Shown here in pieces: positions 24,312-61,822 of a stretch of 64,000 nucleotides of DNA. The first letter of the stretch is position 1; each line of letters opens with the position of its first letter. The notes below the pieces were generated by a model, which ran no database searches, was not told the DNA's origin, and saw nothing but the letters and a program-made list of their open reading frames with translations. The position numbers and the translations under genes were made by a program. The stretch spans positions 62,394-126,393 of the forward strand of contig DFGJ01000021.1 of the NCBI GenBank assembly GCA_002372375.1, written 5' to 3'. The DNA is from Ruminococcaceae bacterium UBA3753 (GTDB lineage: Bacteria > Bacillota > Clostridia > Oscillospirales > Acutalibacteraceae).

Positions 24312-24950
24312 AAAAAACCCCCTTAAATTGTAATTATTTGTACCGAAAAAATACCGTACCGTTGAAGTTTAAATTAAAACTTTTTAAAGATCCAGTTAAA
24401 ATTTAGTTTTTATGTAGCAATAAGCGAAGTGCAAAACTTCTGCTTTTGTAAGTCAAAATTTTATCTATTTTGCAAATAGAACAAGAAGTAAAACCCTGCA
24501 GTAAAACATATATTTATAAAAACTAACTAAAGCCTCTTCTACGCTCTAAATAATCTTATATATCTAAGACGCAATTGATAATTGACCAACAAAACAAAGA
24601 CCAGACTATAAATTAAGCCCAAATCATTTATATTCTTGTTTTTTATCTTAAAGAAATTAAAACAATAAATCGAAAACGTTCACAATTTCTGAGTTATCTA
24701 TCCCTAAGAAATTCATCGTTGTTAGCTATAATAACATGTTTATATTTATTGCACTGATTAAAATGTTCAGAATGTTCCATGTATGCAGTTAACAAACTTT
24801 TTAGCCTCCCCACTATGATCTACCAATAACGTCCTCAGAGTTGTCCGGAACAAGGTTGTAACCCAAAAACGATAAATTACTCAGTGGTTGTTTTCCAAGT
24901 GCAAAAGCAAAAGACTAAAAGCAGATTATAAGCTGGAGAAGATTGAATAA

Positions 24951-25420
24951 AAGTACGGCAACTTAGAAATTTTAAAGGGGCAATTAGAATCGGTGCTATT
25001 TTACAAAGAAGCCGCATCATTATCTATCAGCTATTTGCACGCTCGATCCTTTCTCTTTCCGCCTGGGGAGGCATTATATAATTTATTTACAAACTTTGAG
25101 CGTCTAAAGTGCGGCAACTTAGAAAATTCAAAAAGACAATTAGAAGTCGGCGCTGCCTTACAAAGAAGCCACATCATTATCTATCAGCTATTTGCACGCT
25201 CAATCCTTTCTCTTTCCGCTTGAGAAGGCCCTATATAATTTATTTACAAACTTTGAGTATCTGAAGTGCGGCAACTTAGAAATTTTAAAGGGGCAATTAG
25301 AATCGGTGCTACCTTACAAGGAAGCCACATCATTGTCTATTAGCTATTTGCACGCTCGATCCTTTCTCTTTCCGCTTGAGAAGGCCTTATATAGTTTATC
25401 TGCAAACTTTGAGCATCTCC
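24951..25420 (-). repeat. tandem array, ~156 bp x 3; the innermost unit contains the last ~26 codons and stop of tsaB
   Basis: Unit starts (aagtRcggcaacttagaaa) are at 24951, 25107 and 25264. The string tatttgcacgctcRatcctttctctttccgc recurs at about 25033, 25190 and 25344, and the tsaB stop is at 25340. Confidence 0.9.
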
Positions 25421-38338: not shown

Positions 38339-40420
38339 ATGAAAAGACAGGTATCTTTGGAGAAAACAAGAAATATAGGTATTATGGCTCACATAGATGC
38401 CGGAAAAACTACGACGACAGAAAGAATTTTATTTTATACAGGAGTTAACCACAAAATAGGTGAAACCCATGATGGCGCTGCCACCATGGATTGGATGGAG
38501 CAAGAGCAAGAAAGGGGTATAACTATAACTTCAGCGGCGACAACGTGCTTTTGGAAGCAGCATAGAATTAATATCATAGATACACCAGGTCACGTGGATT
38601 TTACCGTTGAGGTTGAAAGGTCTTTGAGAGTTCTGGATGGGTCTGTTACAGTCCTGTGTGCTAAAGGGGGAGTAGAGCCACAGTCGGAGACTGTCTGGCG
38701 TCAAGCTGACCGCTATAAAGTGCCTAGAATGGTCTATGTGAACAAAATGGATGCTGTGGGAGCTGATTTCTATAATGTTATCCAAATGATGAAGGACCGT
38801 CTACGCTGCAACGCTGTTCCGATTCAATTGCCAATAGGTTCGGATGAAACTTTTAGAGGGATCATAGATCTTGTTGAGATGAAGGCATATATATATAATG
38901 ACGATCTAGGTAAGGACATAACTGTTGAGGAGATACCGCAAGAGCTTGAGGACCGATCGGCTGAATATAGGCGAGAACTTTTAGAGCATGTTGCCGAAAT
39001 GGACGATGCTTTGTTCGAGAAATACTTGAATGATGAAGAAATAACACAGGATGAAATAAAGTCAGCTATTAGAAAAGCGACACTTGCCAATAAGATGGTG
39101 CCTGTAACTTGCGGGAGTTCTTACAAAAATAAAGGTGTTCAAAAGCTTTTAGATGCAATAGTCGATTATATGCCTGCACCAACAGATGTTCCGGCTATAA
39201 AAGGGATAAACCCTGAAACTAACGAGGAATGCGAGCGTCACTCTTCGGACTCTGAGCCGTTTTCAGCTCTGGCTTTTAAAATTGCTACTGACCCTTACGT
39301 AGGTAAGCTATGCTTCTTCAGGGTGTACTCTGGATCTATCAGTGCTGGTACTACTGTTTATAACTCAACTAAAAACAGTAAAGAAAGACTTGGCAGAATT
39401 CTTCAAATGCACGCAAATCATCGGCAAGACATAGATACTGTTTACGCTGGTGACATTGCTGCTGCAGTTGGTTTAAAGAATACTACAACTGGCGATACTC
39501 TTTGTGTGGAATCCAATCCAGTAATTTTAGAGTCTATGGAATTTCCTGAGCCTGTTATTAGGGTGGCCATTGAGCCAAAAACAAAGGCTGGCCAAGAAAA
39601 GATGGGCTTGGCACTTGCCAAGCTTGCCGAGGAGGATCCTACGTTTAAGGCTTACACGGATAAAGAGACCGGGCAGACGATAATTGCTGGAATGGGTGAG
39701 TTGCACCTTGAAATTATCGTGGACAGATTACTGAGAGAATTTAAGGTTGAGGCTAATATTGGTGACCCTCAGGTTGCGTACAAAGAGACCATAAGAGAGA
39801 ATGCTGATGTTGAAAGTAAATATGTCCGTCAGTCTGGCGGTAGAGGGCAGTACGGTCATGTGAAAATAAAAATTTCGCCTAACCCGGCCAAAGGCTATGA
39901 GTTCGTTAATTCTATTGTTGGTGGTGCTATTCCTAAAGAATACATTCCTGCTGTGGATGAAGGTATAAAAAGTGCTATGCAGGCTGGTATTTTAGCAGGA
40001 TATCCGGTTGTGGATGTTAAGGTTGAGTTATACTATGGTTCTTTCCACGAAGTCGACTCATCTGAAATGGCGTTTAAAATAGCGGGATCAATGGCTTTTA
40101 AAGATGCGATGAGCAAAGCTGATCCCGTATTGTTGGAGCCCATAATGAAAGTTAGTGTTACCGTTCCGGAAGAATATATGGGGGATGTTATAGGTGACCT
40201 TAATTCTCGCCGTGGCATGATTCAGGGAATGGAAGCCCTTGCTGGTGCACAAAGAATAAATGCAAATGTTCCTCTGTCTGAAATGTTCGGATATGCTACT
40301 GACATGCGTTCTAAAACTCAAGGTAGGGGACAATACACAATGGAGCCAAGTCATTATGCTGAGGTACCGAAATCTGTTTCGGAAGGAATTATATCCTCAA
40401 GAGTTAAGCCGGCGGGATAG
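38339..40420 (+). CDS. fusA: elongation factor G
   Basis: [38 protein letters not shown] and NKMD, with full-length colinearity to EF-G and the end ...SRVKPAG. Confidence 0.97.
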
Positions 40421-41350
40421 GTTGGCCATACCGCTGGCATGCGTTCTAAAATTTAAGATAAGGCGGAAATACGCAACGTAACCGCGTCACTATGTTAGGG
40501 TACTAAATTCTGTTTTGAAAGAATTGTGTCCTTTAAGAGTGGAGTTGACGGGAAATCGGCCGCCAGTTTGTGCTTTCTTTCCAAGACTTAAGATTTGAAG
40601 TATTATGCTATGAAACTGGGTCAATGTGCTGGGGTACCGAGATCTGTTTCGAGAGTAATTTTGTCCTCAAGAGTTAAATCGACGGTAGCGGTTGTCGGCA
40701 TGTGTACTTCCAGTGTTCGTTCTAAAATTTAGGACTGGGGACAATGCGCAATTTAATTGAGTTACTGTGTTGAGGTACTGGGATATGTTTCGGAAGGAAT
40801 TATATTCTCGAGGGTTAAGCCGGCGGAATAGGTTGCCATACCGCTGGCATGCGTTCTAAAATTTAAGATAGGGCGGAAATACGCAACGTAACCGCGTCAC
40901 TATGTTAGGGTACTGAATTTTGTTTTGAGCGAATTGTGTCCTTAAGAGTGGAGTTGACGGGAAATCGGCCGTCAGTTTGTGCTTTCTTTCCAAGACTTAG
41001 GATTTGGAGTATTATGCTATGGAACTGGGTCACTGTGCTGGAGTACCAAAGTCTGTTTCGAGGGGGATTGTGTCCTCAAGAGTTAAGTTGTTGGTAGCAG
41101 TTGCCGACTTGTGTGCCTTCAGCATGCGTTCCAAAACTTAGGACTAGTACGCAATTTAGTTGAGTTACTATGCTGGGGTACCGAAATCTGTTTCGGAATG
41201 AATTATATCTTCAAGAGTTAAATCGACGGTAGCGGTTGTCGGCATGTGTACTTCCAGTGTTCGTTCTAAAATTTAGGACTGGGGACAATACGCAATTTAA
41301 TTGAGTTACTGTGTTGAGGTACTGGGATCTGTTTCGGAAGGAATAACTTG
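40304..41350 (+). repeat. tandem array of ~132-143 bp units (about 8) seeded by the last ~117 nt of fusA, with higher-order re-duplication
   Basis: Unit starts (atgcgttctaaaa and diverged forms) are at 40304, 40439, 40571, 40713, 40848, 40980, 41123 and 41257. Units 2 and 5 are near identical, as are units 4 and 8. Confidence 0.92.
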
Positions 41351-55480: not shown

Positions 55481-56287
55481 TTAGTAAAGCTCATAAGGAT
55501 GACGGTCAAACGATTTATATTCATCAAAAAAACGGAGTAAGTCTTTAGCATCGTCAGAGTTAGGTTTTTCATTTTTATAAAAATTTTCAAACTCGCTAAC
55601 CACATTTTTATACGACTTCTTGTTAGATTTCGACAAACGCAATTCTTCACGATATTTCTCCCAAAACATAGCATGTTTCGATTCAAGATGTTTCGTAATC
55701 AAGCGAAGAACAGGTCTTAATGCAGGGTTAGTATAAAAGAGCTTGAAACGTTTTCGTTTGCTAAAAGGAAACAAAGGAAACAACAACATACTCCAATCTT
55801 GTTCTATGCGACCATTCAGTATATAACATTGCATTAAATTATCATTCGCACTACGCCAAAGAGTTAAAATACTTCCCGCTCTTTTAATAATGTCTGGACA
55901 AATAGCTATAGAGTGTAGCTCCAAAAAGTTACACTCTGTTAGAATATCTTCATGAGCTTCTACGATCATATCCATAACGTGGAGAAGTCGATTTAACGCA
56001 TCTGAATCTTTCTCAAAACGATCAATAAGTACTTTTAAAAACAAATTAAAGTTACGTTCCTTTAAATACCACTTTGCTAAAACAGAGATGGACAATACCA
56101 TTAGTGTGTGAATCATCAGCGATGCAAAATCATTATCAGGAATCTTCATGAGATTTTGCTTATTATGAGCGTCCATACTTGTCTCTTGTTTTTCATTCTC
56201 CCAAGTTGGATTCCTGCACTCGTGCGCGCTTGCCGCTAAATTTCCAGTAAGCCCTAGCAAAATCGTCGTACCTATGAATTTTTTCAT
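55481..56287 (-). CDS. hypothetical exported/membrane protein (family shared with 56504..57292)
   Basis: GGGGAGG RBS. The signal peptide is MKKFIGTTILLGLTGNLAASA, followed by a second hydrophobic segment at about aa 60-75 and then a helical domain. Confidence 0.5.
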   Translation of the reverse strand: MKKFIGTTILLGLTGNLAASAHECRNPTWENEKQETSMDAHNKQNLMKIPDNDFASLMIHTLMVLSISVLAKWYLKERNFNLFLKVLIDRFEKDSDALNRLLHVMDMIVEAHEDILTECNFLELHSIAICPDIIKRAGSILTLWRSANDNLMQCYILNGRIEQDWSMLLFPLFPFSKRKRFKLFYTNPALRPVLRLITKHLESKHAMFWEKYREELRLSKSNKKSYKNVVSEFENFYKNEKPNSDDAKDLLRFFDEYKSFDRHPYELY

Positions 56288-56503
56288 AAAACCTCCCCTT
56301 AATTGCAGAATAAATTACTCTCACAAAACAAATACCTAACTATGTTAAAACCTACCTAAAATAAGTTCAATACGCCAGAAACTCCCTGAAAATAAAATTC
56401 GCAAAAGACCAATACGAATAGTAAATATTTACATTATTTTTGTCAATTAACATTGTTCTTCACCTGCGACAAAATTGTTTATAGCAAAAAAATTTTCTTT
56501 TAT

Positions 56504-57292
56504 TTAATGATCTGTAAAAATTTCGCTAATTGAACGAGAAAGTATAAAAGCGGGAGCTTCCTTGATTTGCTTTTCTAGCTCGCCCCGTATCTTGCTCGCT
56601 CCTATACGTAATATTGTTGCTTTTTTACCAACCTTATTTATACTATTGGAGATTACCCTATCAAACAAACGATAAAATATTCTCGATACAAATAACTTAT
56701 TTTTTAACCACCGAAACTTATTTTCGTCAAGAAAAACGAAGCGATCAAAAATAGCATTAATTTCTTCTATTCTTTTATTTAAATAGTTTAAACTATTTTT
56801 CATACCAACGAGAAGCTCTTTCTCACTGCGCACATTGCTTTTATAACAGTGTCTAAACAAAAAACTTCCATACGGTGCATGATGCTCCATTAACTCACGG
56901 CTTAACCCTCTCTTCTCTATAAGGCTACACCAAACTGCATCAAATTCCGGGAAGATAACCTCAAAAGGGCGCATATTATTTTTTAAACGTGAAAGCTGAA
57001 ACTGAATGTCTTTTAGATCTTTATCTATTTTTACATTTTGCTCTCTAATATTGCGCACAACCTGCCGCAACCAAATACTGATTAAAAAACTTGCAACCAG
57101 ACAAGTAGAAACAACCAGATCATTAGAACGCTCTTTTAAACTAAATTTGTTAACTATAGTTGTATCGGATTCATTATTACAATTGAAAATCAACTTACTC
57201 CCCACTTTTCCTCGTGTATCCGCCATATTTGCACCCAACGCCAAGTTCTCTGAAAGCCCTAACAACATTACTGTACTCAATATCTTTTTCAT
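56504..57292 (-). CDS. hypothetical exported/membrane protein (family shared with 55481..56287)
   Basis: The ATG at 57292 has a GGAGGG RBS 4 nt upstream. The signal peptide is MKKILSTVMLLGLSENLALGA, and the architecture matches the neighbour. Confidence 0.5.
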   Translation of the reverse strand: MKKILSTVMLLGLSENLALGANMADTRGKVGSKLIFNCNNESDTTIVNKFSLKERSNDLVVSTCLVASFLISIWLRQVVRNIREQNVKIDKDLKDIQFQLSRLKNNMRPFEVIFPEFDAVWCSLIEKRGLSRELMEHHAPYGSFLFRHCYKSNVRSEKELLVGMKNSLNYLNKRIEEINAIFDRFVFLDENKFRWLKNKLFVSRIFYRLFDRVISNSINKVGKKATILRIGASKIRGELEKQIKEAPAFILSRSISEIFTDH

Positions 57293-57509
57293 GAAACCCT
57301 CCATATTTGATTTGAATGTAATATACATTATAATATATAGATTTTATGATGTATATATTTTACTAGTTATTTTTTAAAAATCTATTTTTTACATAAATTT
57401 TCGTTTCAAATTACACTAAATTTCGTTATATAAAACACTTCCTTTTTTTGATTTTTATATTAAAATTGAATCTGAGAGGTTCATGCCTGAACGAATAGGA
57501 GGACGAGAC

Positions 57510-58796
57510 GTGCTAGACTTGAAAAAACTTAGAAATGATCCGGATACTATTATCCATTCGCTAAACAGAAGAGGACACGATTATTCTTCTGCCGTTAATG
57601 GTTTGTTGAGAATCGATAAAAAGAGGCGCGAGTTGATGGCAAAAATGGAAAGCCTCCGTTTTGAACAAAATGAAGCGAATAAAAGGATTGCCAAATTAGT
57701 CAAAGACAAAGAAGACACAACGGAGCTGTTTGCAAAGTTTAGATCGATTTCATCCCTTGCATCTGATTATAAGTCGCAAATTTCTGATCTTGAAAAAGAA
57801 CAAGAAGAAATTTTGTTGAGTTTGCCTAATACGCCTCACTGCGATGTGCCCACTGGCCTTTCAGATAGGGAGAATAAGGAAGTGAGACGAGTTGATGCTC
57901 CAAAAATAAACAATTTCAGAAATAAACCACATTGGCAGATTGGTGCGGATTTGGACATCCTGGATTTCTCGCGGGCGAGCAAAATAACAGGGTCTAGGTT
58001 TGTTGTTTATAAGGGTTTGGGGGCTAAACTGGAGCGCGCTATAATTAGTTTTTTCCTAGATGTTCACACTAAAAATGGTTTCAAAGAGATTTTGCCGCCG
58101 TATATTGTAAATTCTAAAAGCATGACTGGCACGGGTCAGCTCCCTAAATTCAGTGAAGATACTTTTAAATTAGAGCGTTCTGATTATTATCTAATACCTA
58201 CGGCCGAGGTACCTGTAACTAATTTGCATTCTGGTGAGATATTGAAAGAGTCAGAACTGCCGGTAAAGTACTGTTCGTACTCTGCATGCTTCAGGGCAGA
58301 GGCCGGTTCTGCGGGAAAAGATACAAAAGGCATTATACGACAGCACCAGTTTAATAAAGTTGAGCTTGTAAAATTTTCACTACCAGAAAATTCTAATGAT
58401 GAATTAGAGTCGTTGCTAGAAGAAGCTGAATTAATTTTAAAAATTTTAGAGCTCCCGTACAGAGTGGTGTGCTTATGCACGGGGGATTTAGGTTTTAGTT
58501 CCGCCAAGACCTATGACATTGAGGTTTGGATGCCCTCGTATGATAGGTACGTTGAAATATCGTCTTGTTCAAATTTTCTGGATTTTCAAAGTAGGCGTGC
58601 AAATATAAAGTACAAAAATAGTAGAACCGGTACGAATGAGTTTGTGCATACTTTAAATGGATCAGGTCTCGCTGTCGGGAGAACTTTTGCCGCTATCTTA
58701 GAGAATTATCAAAATGAGGATGGTTCTGTGAGCATCCCCGAGGCACTGAGGGAGTATATGGGAGTAAACGAAATATCTGTCGATAACTCGTTCTAG
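57510..58796 (+). CDS. serS: seryl-tRNA synthetase
   Basis: The GTG at 57510 is preceded by AGGAGG (6 nt) and gives the canonical (M)[11 protein letters not shown]-terminus. Class II motifs [18 protein letters not shown] and ...[14 protein letters not shown] are present. Confidence 0.93.
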
Positions 58797-59280
58797 ATTC
58801 TTACTTGATATTTCTAAGGTGAAGCGTTCATATTTCCATTTTGCTTTTTTAGCAAGCCGCTCTTTTGTTGATAATAACTAAGTTGTTGCAGTTACTTTTC
58901 TGGCAGGAAAGTGTTTGTCGCTACTTTAGAAAATCATAGTAACGAGGGTAATTTTGTGAGCATACACGAAACGCTACAGGAGTATAGTATGTGGGATCAA
59001 ATGGGGTATTTGTCGATGGCTCACTCTAGGTTTTTCGTTTGTTATTTTTCAGAAAAAGTGATTCATACCTTTCTTATATTTTTAGGTAATGCGCTCTTTT
59101 ATTGATGATAATGGAATTACGGTTTCCTCGTCTAAGGTGGTTGTGCTGAATTTTTTGACCGCAGTGAATGTTTTTGTCTAGTGCGTCGCATACTTGTTAT
59201 CGGTTTTAGGTAATTTCTGGTTCTATTTTGTGACTATGTAGTACAATTTACTTCTACCGTTTTGGAGTTTTCATTTTTAA
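58685..59280 (+). repeat. tandem ~226 bp units: the serS 3' end plus downstream spacer, then one clear and one decayed ghost copy
   Basis: gccgctatcttagagaattatcaaaatgaggatggttctgtgagcatcc (58689-) matches gtcgctactttagaaaatcatagtaacgagggtaattttgtgagcatac (58917-). The spacer blocks ...gccgctcttttgttgataata and ...gcgctcttttattgatgataat also correspond. Confidence 0.8.
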
Positions 59281-59289
59281 AATTTCTCC

Positions 59290-60156
59290 TTGTTTTTATT
59301 GAATATGCTTATGGATAAATCCGATATGCAGTTTAATTTGAATCATGTGACGTTTTCCTACAGATTGGGAAGTAGGAAAATTTTAGATGATGTTTCTTTA
59401 AAAATAAAGAAGGGTGAATTCGTTTTTTTGTTAGGAAAAAATGGATCCGGAAAATCTACATTTTTAAAGCATCTTAATGCCATGCTTATACCTACTTCAG
59501 GAGAAATTTATGTTGATGGAAAGGATACAAAACTTGAAAAAAATATTTATAAAATTCGCAAAACAGTAGGGATGATTTTGCAAAATCCTGAAAGTCAAAT
59601 TGTAAACAGTATCGTTGAAGAGGATGTCGCTTTTGGATTAGAAAACATTGCAGAGGATCCTAAAATTATTCAGAAAAGAGTAGACAGCGCTTTACAGGCT
59701 ATTGGTATGCAAACTTATAAAAAGCGGATGATTAATGAGCTATCTGGTGGACAAAGACAGAAGATCGTTATTGCCGGCGTTTTGGCTATGCAACCTGATT
59801 GTATACTCTTAGACGAACCTACTTCTATGCTTGATACTAAAAGCAGGTCAGAAATTTTGCGTATAATATATGATTTAAATAAAAAATTGGGAATCACCGT
59901 CGTTTGGATTACACATAACCTAGAGGAAGTGCAATGCGGGCACAGAATCTTGTTAATGAAGGAAGGTAAAATAGCACTTGATACAACCCCTTCTGAACTT
60001 TTTTATAACGACGAAATACTTAGCAAGTTCGACTTAAAAAGAACAGAATTGGTAGAATTTGTGTGTAATTTAAAAAAGAAAGGTCTCAAAATAAAAGATA
60101 CAACTAATAAAGAAGCGGTAATCGATTTTATATTTAATCAGCTGAGAAAAAACTAA
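59290..60156 (+). CDS. ecfA: energy-coupling factor (ECF) transporter ATPase EcfA
   Basis: GKNGSGKST, QNPESQ, LSGGQRQKIVIAGVLAM, LLDEPTSMLD and ITHNLEE. The start is uncertain, and the ATG at 59326 (MQFNLNHVTFSY) is plausible. No ecfA2 or ecfT follows. Confidence 0.85.
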   Translation: MFLLNMLMDKSDMQFNLNHVTFSYRLGSRKILDDVSLKIKKGEFVFLLGKNGSGKSTFLKHLNAMLIPTSGEIYVDGKDTKLEKNIYKIRKTVGMILQNPESQIVNSIVEEDVAFGLENIAEDPKIIQKRVDSALQAIGMQTYKKRMINELSGGQRQKIVIAGVLAMQPDCILLDEPTSMLDTKSRSEILRIIYDLNKKLGITVVWITHNLEEVQCGHRILLMKEGKIALDTTPSELFYNDEILSKFDLKRTELVEFVCNLKKKGLKIKDTTNKEAVIDFIFNQLRKN

Positions 60157-60204
60157 AGTTATTTTAAAATTAAAATTTGCAAAATTTTTATTACTATGCG
60201 AATT

Positions 60205-60900
60205 ACAAAGTTGTAGACACAAGACATAAGTCCGCACAAAATAAATCAAGCAAATCGAAATATAGTATAAGGGCACACAATTTTTATTTTTGGTGTCCGT
60301 ATAGTTAGCTCCCCCCAAAAAAATTTTGAAAAGTATCGCTGATTAAAACCGCTTTTGACTTTTTAATTGACCAAATTGAGGGTACTTCTTCATTTCTGAT
60401 GTTTTAATCTACAAATCGAATTTTTGAATTATCAAATTATAAATACAAGACATAAGTTCACACAAAATAAGTCAAACAAATCAAAACATAGTACAAAAGT
60501 GCTCTATTTTTATTTTCAGTATCTGTATAGTCAGCCCCCCAAAAAAAATTTTTGAAAAGTATCGCTGTTTCTGACCATTAAAATCGCTTTTGACTTTTTA
60601 ATTGACCAAATTAAGGGTACTTCTTCATTTCCGATGTTTTAATCTACAAATCGAATTTTTGAATTACCAAATTATAAACACAAGACATAAGTCCGCACAA
60701 AATAAATCAAGCAAATCAAAATATAGTATAAAGGCACACCATTTTTATTTTTAGTGCTTGTATAGTTAGCTCCTGAATTTTTGTATAAGTACCACTATTT
60801 TGGCTTATGAAGATAACTTTTAAATTGACCAAAGTTTGGGCACTTTTTTAATTTTTTATATTTTAATCTACATATCTAATTTTTGGATAATTAAACTACA
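60205..60900. repeat. tandem array, ~226-235 bp x 3, between ecfA and the DUF1653 gene
   Basis: acaagacataagt recurs at 60219, 60445 and 60680. The long colinear block ...gcttttgactttttaattgaccaaattRagggtacttcttcatttc appears in each unit. Confidence 0.9.
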
Positions 60901-61822
60901 AACATAGTATATAAATTTGCAGATAGTAAACTAAAAAGATTAGGGGCATACTAAATAAAGAGAGACTACTAATTAACTGCAAAAATGTTTAATAAGCCTG
61001 CTAAACGTTATAATCGCAAGACAGCCCATAAACCCGACTATTCACCACAAATATACAAATATAGCAGATATAATTCTAACGAATACAACATGTATCAGGC
61101 TGCATATTTATCTATTTTTGGGACGAAGCAGTCGTACTTTTGTTAAAATTTTATTAACCAAATATGTTTCTATAACGCACTTTCAAATGAACAATACTGA
61201 TAAAAATCGGTTTGCAGCTTGTCACAAACGTTTTACTAATGTAAAGTACACAAAAGGCCGGTCGATAAAAATACAATGTACTATAAGCAATTTTTAATAA
61301 TGAGCCAACATTTCTCTACACAAATTCTACATATATATTCAAAAGCCATTTGTCTTAAAGCTAAACTTTTTGAACGGCTTTCGTCATTCGACTTAGTTTT
61401 GCTAAATAGCAAAAAACCACAACTTAGCTTTCAACACGATAAAATCTGCAGAAAACGAGAATTCACACGAACCAAATGCGAAAAGTGTCCCTGTGCACAA
61501 ATTCTGAAAACCGTTAGGAGAACCAACACTTCCCGCGAGTGCTATTAGGCACAGAAAGTAACGATTCCACAGCCACTCTTAAACATCAAGATGCAAAATC
61601 AAAACAGTGCAAAACACTTTTCAGAAGGATTTTTAATTAAACATCACGAATTAAATCCGTGTTCCAACCGAAACTGAGTAAAAACATGAGGAAGACGATT
61701 ACCACTCTCTCACCGTAACCAATTGGCAAAATCAGCTTAAATCAAACTCAAGAATCAGCTTTAACTAGGCGAAGGGACTTACACAAACAATACTATACAG
61801 CCATAATTAATAAAAAAGAGTG

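Follow-up and report, generated by a model that had tools for sequence, protein, structure and literature searches.

Most pseudogenes of Ehrlichia ruminantium are reportedly truncated gene fragments that are associated with repeats. Its genome has a coding density of ~64%, long intergenic regions and non-coding tandem repeats that expand and contract (PMC10710844); different reduced genomes with a high coding density have been described (PMC12306168). No paper was found that describes the repeat architecture of the rumen lineage analysed here, which is represented by a stretch of 64,000 nucleotides (the window) on contig DFGJ01000021.1 of Ruminococcaceae bacterium UBA3753. In the window, the 3′ end of serS, the gene for seryl-tRNA synthetase (SerS), and part of the adjacent spacer are present twice between serS and a gene for an EcfA-like ABC-transporter ATPase (ecfA), and the second copy, referred to as the ghost, is a non-functional scar that decays neutrally, free of constraint at the protein level. 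E. ruminantium is the closest known analogue of the genome as a whole; at this locus, a single old copy at 70% identity is found, unlike the actively varying arrays of E. ruminantium. The duplication is an ordinary event, unusual only in the frequency of such events in this genome. It resembles other partial-gene tandem duplications in its direct, adjacent and colinear copies, the upstream one of which completes the gene, in its promoterless and decaying downstream copy, and in its locus-specific unit; nothing essential differs.

The genes at the locus and the parts of the duplication are given below (ORF, open reading frame).

57483..58796, forward strand: serS, seryl-tRNA synthetase, intact, 437 amino acids (ORF; Pfam Seryl_tRNA_N 9e-24, tRNA-synt_2b 1e-44)
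58672..58878, forward strand: unit 1, the last 125 nt of serS (codons ~397-437 and the stop codon) and 82 nt of 3′ spacer (local alignment; blastn 58686-58877)
58879-58899: junction of 21 nt between units 1 and 2, unalignable
58900..59112, forward strand: unit 2, the ghost, with the decayed serS tail (58900-59029) and the spacer copy (59030-59112) (alignment; ghost residues absent from relatives)
58857..58877, forward strand: best-kept spacer block (GCCGCTCTTTTGTTGATAATA), with a twin at 59091-59112
59290..60156, forward strand: EcfA-like ABC-transporter ATPase gene (longest ORF from TTG 59290; public gene call from ATG 59311; ABC_tran 1.8e-33)

The colinear duplication of the serS tail and downstream spacer, which had been claimed in the original prediction, is real and significant. 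Gapped local alignment of 58672-58878 with 58900-59112 gave a score of 79, far above the background of 300 shuffles (20.4±2.7, maximum 31; z≈21). The units were also aligned by self-blastn of the genome (67.7% identity over 201 nt, E=3e-7, offset 228), and ungapped repeat blocks spaced 233 and 234 nt were recovered by a repeat search of the window; the period is accordingly ~228-234 nt and the identity ~68-71%. The spacer blocks, likewise predicted to be repeated, are 79% identical (58845-58877 versus 59079-59111), and the most conserved part of the spacer is the block GC(C)GCTCTTTTRTTGATRATAA. The first copy runs on unbroken from an intact serS with both Pfam domains, and the unit crosses the gene end into the spacer. 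No further match to the duplicated unit was found by self-blastn of the 1.44-Mb genome, and the 21-nt spacer block has no other occurrence genome-wide at ≤3 mismatches; the unit is therefore not a dispersed repeat or mobile element of the REP or MITE type. The serS-ecfA spacer measures 493-514 bp and is long because a pseudogene fragment lies inside it; in 84 related loci, serS is followed by a gap with a median of 72 bp.

Three further features describe the decay of the ghost.

58987..58991, forward strand: 5-nt insertion GTATG, which puts the ghost out of the serS reading frame and whose exact position is uncertain by a few bases (alignment gap)
59027..59029, forward strand: relic of the serS TAG stop codon in the ghost, out of frame with ORF 58911..59105 (end of the frame-corrected translation)
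58911..59105, forward strand: accidental open frame of 64 codons with a GTG start, not a gene (only residues 2-25 resemble SerS)

With the 5-nt insertion removed, the ghost reads FVATLENHSNEGNFVSIHETLQEY-MGSNGVFVDGSL followed by a stop, colinear with the serS tail up to the TAG at 59027-59029, and its end is ...QEYMGSNGVFVDGSL before that stop. The ancestral TAG is out of frame because of the insertion, and the ORF runs on to 59105 because the TAG is out of frame. The translation of ORF 58911..59105 agrees with the one first quoted for it, and its peptide matches only the SerS tail (BLASTP, 14/24 identical to SerS 402-425, E=1e-6), with no Pfam or NCBIfam match at E≤10. The term "ghost ORF" was thus right as to a copy of the SerS tail and wrong in so far as it suggested a gene: the frame is open by accident across a frameshifted pseudogene fragment, and annotations should not list it among the genes.

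Thirty-two nucleotide differences separate the copies in 111 coding positions, distributed 9/12/11 over codon positions 1/2/3 (no third-position bias); the codon changes between ghost and live tail comprise 16 non-synonymous and 7 synonymous ones. Coding identity (71%) and spacer identity (68%) of unit 2 to unit 1 are about equal. The polarity of the changes was assessed for both copies against related SerS proteins, up to 91 per position and 91 at most positions. Of the 16 amino-acid differences, 15 involve a ghost residue that no related protein has, the exception being V431 (in 13/79), and the live tail keeps at the differing positions a residue that is present in relatives, mostly the commonest one. 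Three residues that are invariant in 91/91 related SerS (Q410, G414 and P419) are replaced in the ghost. Since the ghost residues are absent from relatives and those of the live tail are present, the changes took place on the ghost branch. At 67.7% identity, the serS ghost is the third most diverged of 48 decayed copies of gene tails (tail ghosts) in the genome.

The ghost was copied from the lineage's own serS, after the split from its closest sampled relatives. Ghost and live tail have residues in common that are rare among relatives (F402, 8%; S417, 1%; E424, 3%; N429, 5%), and several, S417 and E424 among them, are missing from the closest metagenomic relatives, in which SerS is 74-76% identical. 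Neither a ghost behind serS nor any similarity to this spacer was found in the four closest contigs. It is from these shared rare residues, together with the lack of a ghost in the closest relatives, that the origin and its relative date follow. Overall, SerS identity is 55-62% to related Clostridia genomes and 72-76% to the closest metagenomic relatives.

A single short tandem duplication across the serS 3′ end, followed by neutral decay of a functionless second copy and set within a lineage-wide output of such duplications, is the preferred explanation, with a probability of about 0.9. One tandem duplication of ~207-228 bp, with its ends at ~codon 397 of serS and in the 3′ spacer, would have produced the order tail-spacer, tail-spacer; replication slippage, template switching or unequal sister-strand exchange is the likely route. 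Because the first copy is still continuous with the upstream part of serS, the gene remained intact and under purifying selection. The second copy, devoid of the promoter-proximal part, a start codon and a ribosome-binding site, has decayed neutrally to ~70% identity and gained a frameshifting insertion, and does no more than lengthen the serS-ecfA spacer by ~230 bp.

The wider output was surveyed in the whole genome, a metagenome-assembled genome (MAG) of 1.44 Mb in 48 contigs (34.5% G+C, 93% complete) that is closest, among named organisms, to Clostridia of the Oscillospiraceae/Acutalibacteraceae type (~60% SerS identity). The gene set was an own, uncurated set of greedily chosen ORFs of at least 80 amino acids, which cover 67% of the genome with a median inter-ORF gap of 304 bp. 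Self-blastn gave 195 local direct-repeat arrays (offset ≤1500 bp) that occupy 134 kb, or 9.3% of the 1.44 Mb; 64 are intergenic, 53 lie at gene tails, 20 at gene heads and 27 within genes, and the rest are mixed. Tail ghosts number 48 and head ghosts 17 among 777 ORFs of at least 150 amino acids (binomial p=1.5e-4), so that ~6% of these ORFs have a tail ghost; the median tail-ghost identity is 83% (range 66-98%). Offsets are below 600 nt in 366/484 high-scoring segment pairs (HSPs) of the local repeats, and mostly 130-460 nt for tail ghosts. The period is divisible by 3 in 25/27 intragenic arrays (p=2e-10) and in 18/53 tail arrays, the latter being the chance rate; in this contrast the imprint of selection on an abundant supply of tandem duplications is clear. 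The fraction of a tail unit that is coding varies broadly and roughly uniformly (median 0.40, 10th-90th percentile 0.18-0.87), and convergent and co-directional spacers do not differ in the frequency of tail ghosts. Several large ORFs of 1000-2800 amino acids (on contigs C8, C18 and C37) bear long in-frame repeat arrays.

Two of the tail arrays lie in the window itself.

24950-25418: tail array of a tsaB-like gene, period 156
40299-41344: tail array of fusA, period 135/411

These arrays overlap the ends of the tsaB-like gene and of fusA, as expected from the earlier claim that other housekeeping genes of the window have reiterated tails. They are like the serS case in that a coding tail and spacer are reiterated 3′ of an intact housekeeping gene of the same genome, and unlike it in having 3-8 copies, which are younger, with units 66-88% identical; serS has one ghost. 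Loss of a repair gene was considered as the cause of the duplications and was set aside: a MutS2 paralogue (~800 amino acids) is missing in this genome and in that of a relative (G006) and present in 18/19 other genomes searched, an absence that is not clearly relevant, and both MutS and RecA are present, MutS as a 903-residue frame on contig C18 that is the single MutS_V-domain gene found.

Samples of two other genomes were passed through the same pipeline as controls. In 400 kb of G009 (same family, 2.5 Mb, 50% G+C), the array density was 3.5 per 100 kb, arrays made up 3.5% of bases and ORFs covered 85%, with 3 tail ghosts among 284 ORFs. In 177 kb of G006 (nearest GTDB genus, 1.3 Mb, 36% G+C, 92% complete), the corresponding values were 24 per 100 kb, 20% and 70%; the arrays are mostly intergenic, and only 2 tail ghosts were counted among 106 ORFs. 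In G006, serS is followed by a gap of 1039 bp with an array of ~7 copies of 135 bp (87-90% identical) that is not derived from serS (locus L002, G006:C115, 2939-3848). Both G006 and the present genome are rich in arrays when set against G009, so repeat inflation is a trait of a small clade, whereas a high frequency of tail ghosts is more specific to the present genome.

The likeness to E. ruminantium lies in the small genome and low coding density (~64% there, ~67% ORF coverage here) and in long intergenic regions with abundant locus-specific tandem repeats, mostly non-coding. It extends to the truncated gene fragments that reportedly occur at repeats there, to which the 48 tail and 17 head ghosts correspond. 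E. ruminantium is an obligate intracellular alphaproteobacterium, whereas the present organism belongs to uncultured rumen Clostridia (Oscillospirales-like), and active copy-number variation between strains is documented in E. ruminantium. The present genome shows that the E. ruminantium style is also found in a gut-associated Firmicute, a point of relevance to how a small genome without mobile elements can have a low coding density. A bolder proposal, which is given little credence, is that duplication-driven genome inflation in this lineage and G006 is convergent with E. ruminantium, that the "non-coding" third of the genome consists largely of decayed duplications, and that the tail-to-head ratio of 3:1 is partly due to template switching coupled to transcript 3′ ends; the serS ghost, among the oldest recognisable, would in that event mark the detection horizon of the process.

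The single-duplication explanation supposes a lineage-wide supply of frequent tandem duplications, with periods of 60-500 bp and without positional bias, that would then be filtered by selection. Frame-breaking internal duplications would be purged, and the intragenic survivors are almost all in frame. Duplications at 3′ ends would be harmless because the extra copy is untranslated; those at 5′ ends would copy promoter, ribosome-binding site and start codon and would be tolerated less often. The tail bias is thus probably a product of selection, not of a hot spot at 3′ ends, and the genome offers a clean natural view of selection on tandem duplications: in frame inside genes, of any period at 3′ ends, and few at 5′ ends.

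Several points weigh against this explanation. The genome-wide counts depend on the uncurated gene set, and the ratio of 48 tail to 17 head ghosts could also be explained by a hot spot. Junction microhomology, the footprint expected of slippage, is no longer readable at the serS locus. The other public copies of this DNA are 100% identical and apparently come from the same sheep-rumen dataset, so they provide no independent check; confidence in the assembly and in the stability of the copy number is drawn from the fact that the copies diverge by 30%, a difference that no assembler could generate from a single template. The spacer copies, notably the 21-nt block, have diverged slightly less than would be expected of two copies in free drift; this deviation is not significant over ~80 nt, and a small cis element is possible.

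Of the competing explanations, the one that fares best is that template switching is mechanistically favoured at 3′ ends, for instance by conflicts of transcription termination or of replication with transcription, and it too is improbable. Such hot spots would account for the tail bias, and fusA, serS and the tsaB-like gene, which precede the tail ghosts of the window, are highly expressed. Against it, the inner endpoint of the units is unanchored, as seen from the roughly uniform coding share (0.18-0.87); 64 arrays are purely intergenic and 27 intragenic; and the in-frame rule in 25/27 of the latter indicates a strong selective filter on an otherwise unbiased supply. The serS spacer has no terminator-like hairpin, and G006, although richer in arrays, has tail ghosts at only 2/106 ORFs.

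Considerably less probable is that the ghost is the remainder of a whole second serS, produced by a duplication of at least 1.5 kb whose 5′ part was later deleted. The same end state, tail-spacer twice, would be expected from such an event, and the 21 unalignable bases at the junction (58879-58899) could be read in its favour. Nothing 5′ of 58672 pairs downstream, however: deeper serS homology was sought by aligning 58300-58680 with 58880-59300, which scored 22 against 20.2 for shuffles. A deletion that ended exactly at the unit boundary would also be required, and the mostly short offsets across the genome (<600 nt in 366/484 HSPs; mostly 130-460 nt for tail ghosts) are those of short partial duplications.

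A function for the second unit, whether as a small protein from 58911..59105, as a regulatory RNA or leader for the ABC ATPase gene, or as a duplicated cis element (the 21-nt block), is very unlikely. The ORF is open over 64 codons and the block GC(C)GCTCTTTTRTTGATRATAA is the best conserved of the spacer, yet the ORF has no protein-family match, its codons carry no signature of selection, and its ribosome-binding-site spacing is unusable: in a direct reading of the sequence, AGGA stands only 3 nt 5′ of the GTG at 58911, too close for a usual site. No T-box or other Rfam family was matched in 56000-61500 at E≤1. When folded, the two strands of the spacer are no more stable than shuffled sequences (z +0.71 and -0.74); terminator-like sites were not found in the spacer, and promoter-like sites are no more frequent than in shuffles. 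The 21-nt block is unique in the genome, and the closest relative with the same order of serS, gap and ABC ATPase gene has a dissimilar spacer.

An assembly artefact, for which the 48-contig MAG might be cause for concern, can practically be discounted, as the copies differ at ~30% of positions and by several indels and hence have no assembler k-mers in common, stretches of 2.3 kb and 7.3 kb are identical in two other public assemblies (likely of the same dataset), and the genome contains ~190 comparable arrays of every age. Capture of a foreign serS scrap beside the native gene by homology-facilitated illegitimate recombination is just as hard to credit, given that the ghost carries the lineage's own rare residues (F402, S417, E424 and N429), that the non-coding spacer is also duplicated, colinearly, and that the spacers of the closest relatives are unrelated.

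One part of the original prediction was not supported, namely a third, more decayed unit that was thought to run to ~59280. The stretch concerned forms the remainder of the spacer.

59113..59289, no strand assigned: residual spacer before the ABC ATPase gene, not detectably similar to either unit or to the start of the ecfA-like gene

Pairwise and nhmmer searches for this unit stayed at shuffle level: 59113-59420 scored 18 against unit 1 and 59134-59420 scored 23 against unit 2 (shuffles 19-20), 59113-59289 gave p≈0.11 against both units, and an nhmmer profile of the two units (--max, E≤100) recovered only those two units in the 64-kb window. The 177 bp beyond unit 2 may be older decayed material. 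A candidate head ghost of ecfA (59212-59238 versus 59281-59307) was rejected as being at chance level (p≈0.36).

The SerS C-terminus (residues ~431-437, window 58775-58796) extends ~10-12 residues beyond that of most relatives (422-428 amino acids). This extension, ...ISVDNSF, resembles in form the ...ISPENAF of the closest relative (L138), and it predates the ghost, which ends in ...VFVDGSL followed by a stop. At locus L138, serS, a gap of ~526 bp and the ABC ATPase gene follow each other as in the window. Three sister lineages, in which SerS is 74-75% identical, carry between serS and the ABC ATPase gene a gene for a protein of 386-403 amino acids (L135, 5675-6877; L136, 3592-4752; L139, 1888-3099; all on the reverse strand) with a signal-peptide-like N-terminus and no Pfam domain. 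The spacer was considered as a remnant of this gene for a secreted protein of ~400 amino acids, and the idea was dropped, no trace of the gene being found in the window or the genome.

T-box regulation of serS is common among Firmicutes; the serS leader here (57329-57482) is only ~150 nt long. Upstream of it, two adjacent ORFs of 268 and 274 amino acids lie on the reverse strand (55481-57328) with no recorded Pfam domain; the 274-residue ORF was Pfam-negative in our own scan, and both are without Pfam entries in the public gene table. The 274-residue ORF is a called gene in the public assembly.

In G006, serS is flanked on both sides by a direct repeat of ~170 nt (84% identical; L002, 1216-1384 and 2824-2989) and is followed by the 135-bp array described above; pieces of this unit at several places in the locus suggest a dispersed repeat family in that genome. 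In the window, a further tandem array (60200-60930, ~3 copies of ~226-235 bp, 77-83% identical) lies directly 3′ of the ABC ATPase gene and 5′ of a DUF1653 gene; at the corresponding position, sister contigs carry ecfA, a DUF1653 gene on the reverse strand and a second ABC ATPase gene.

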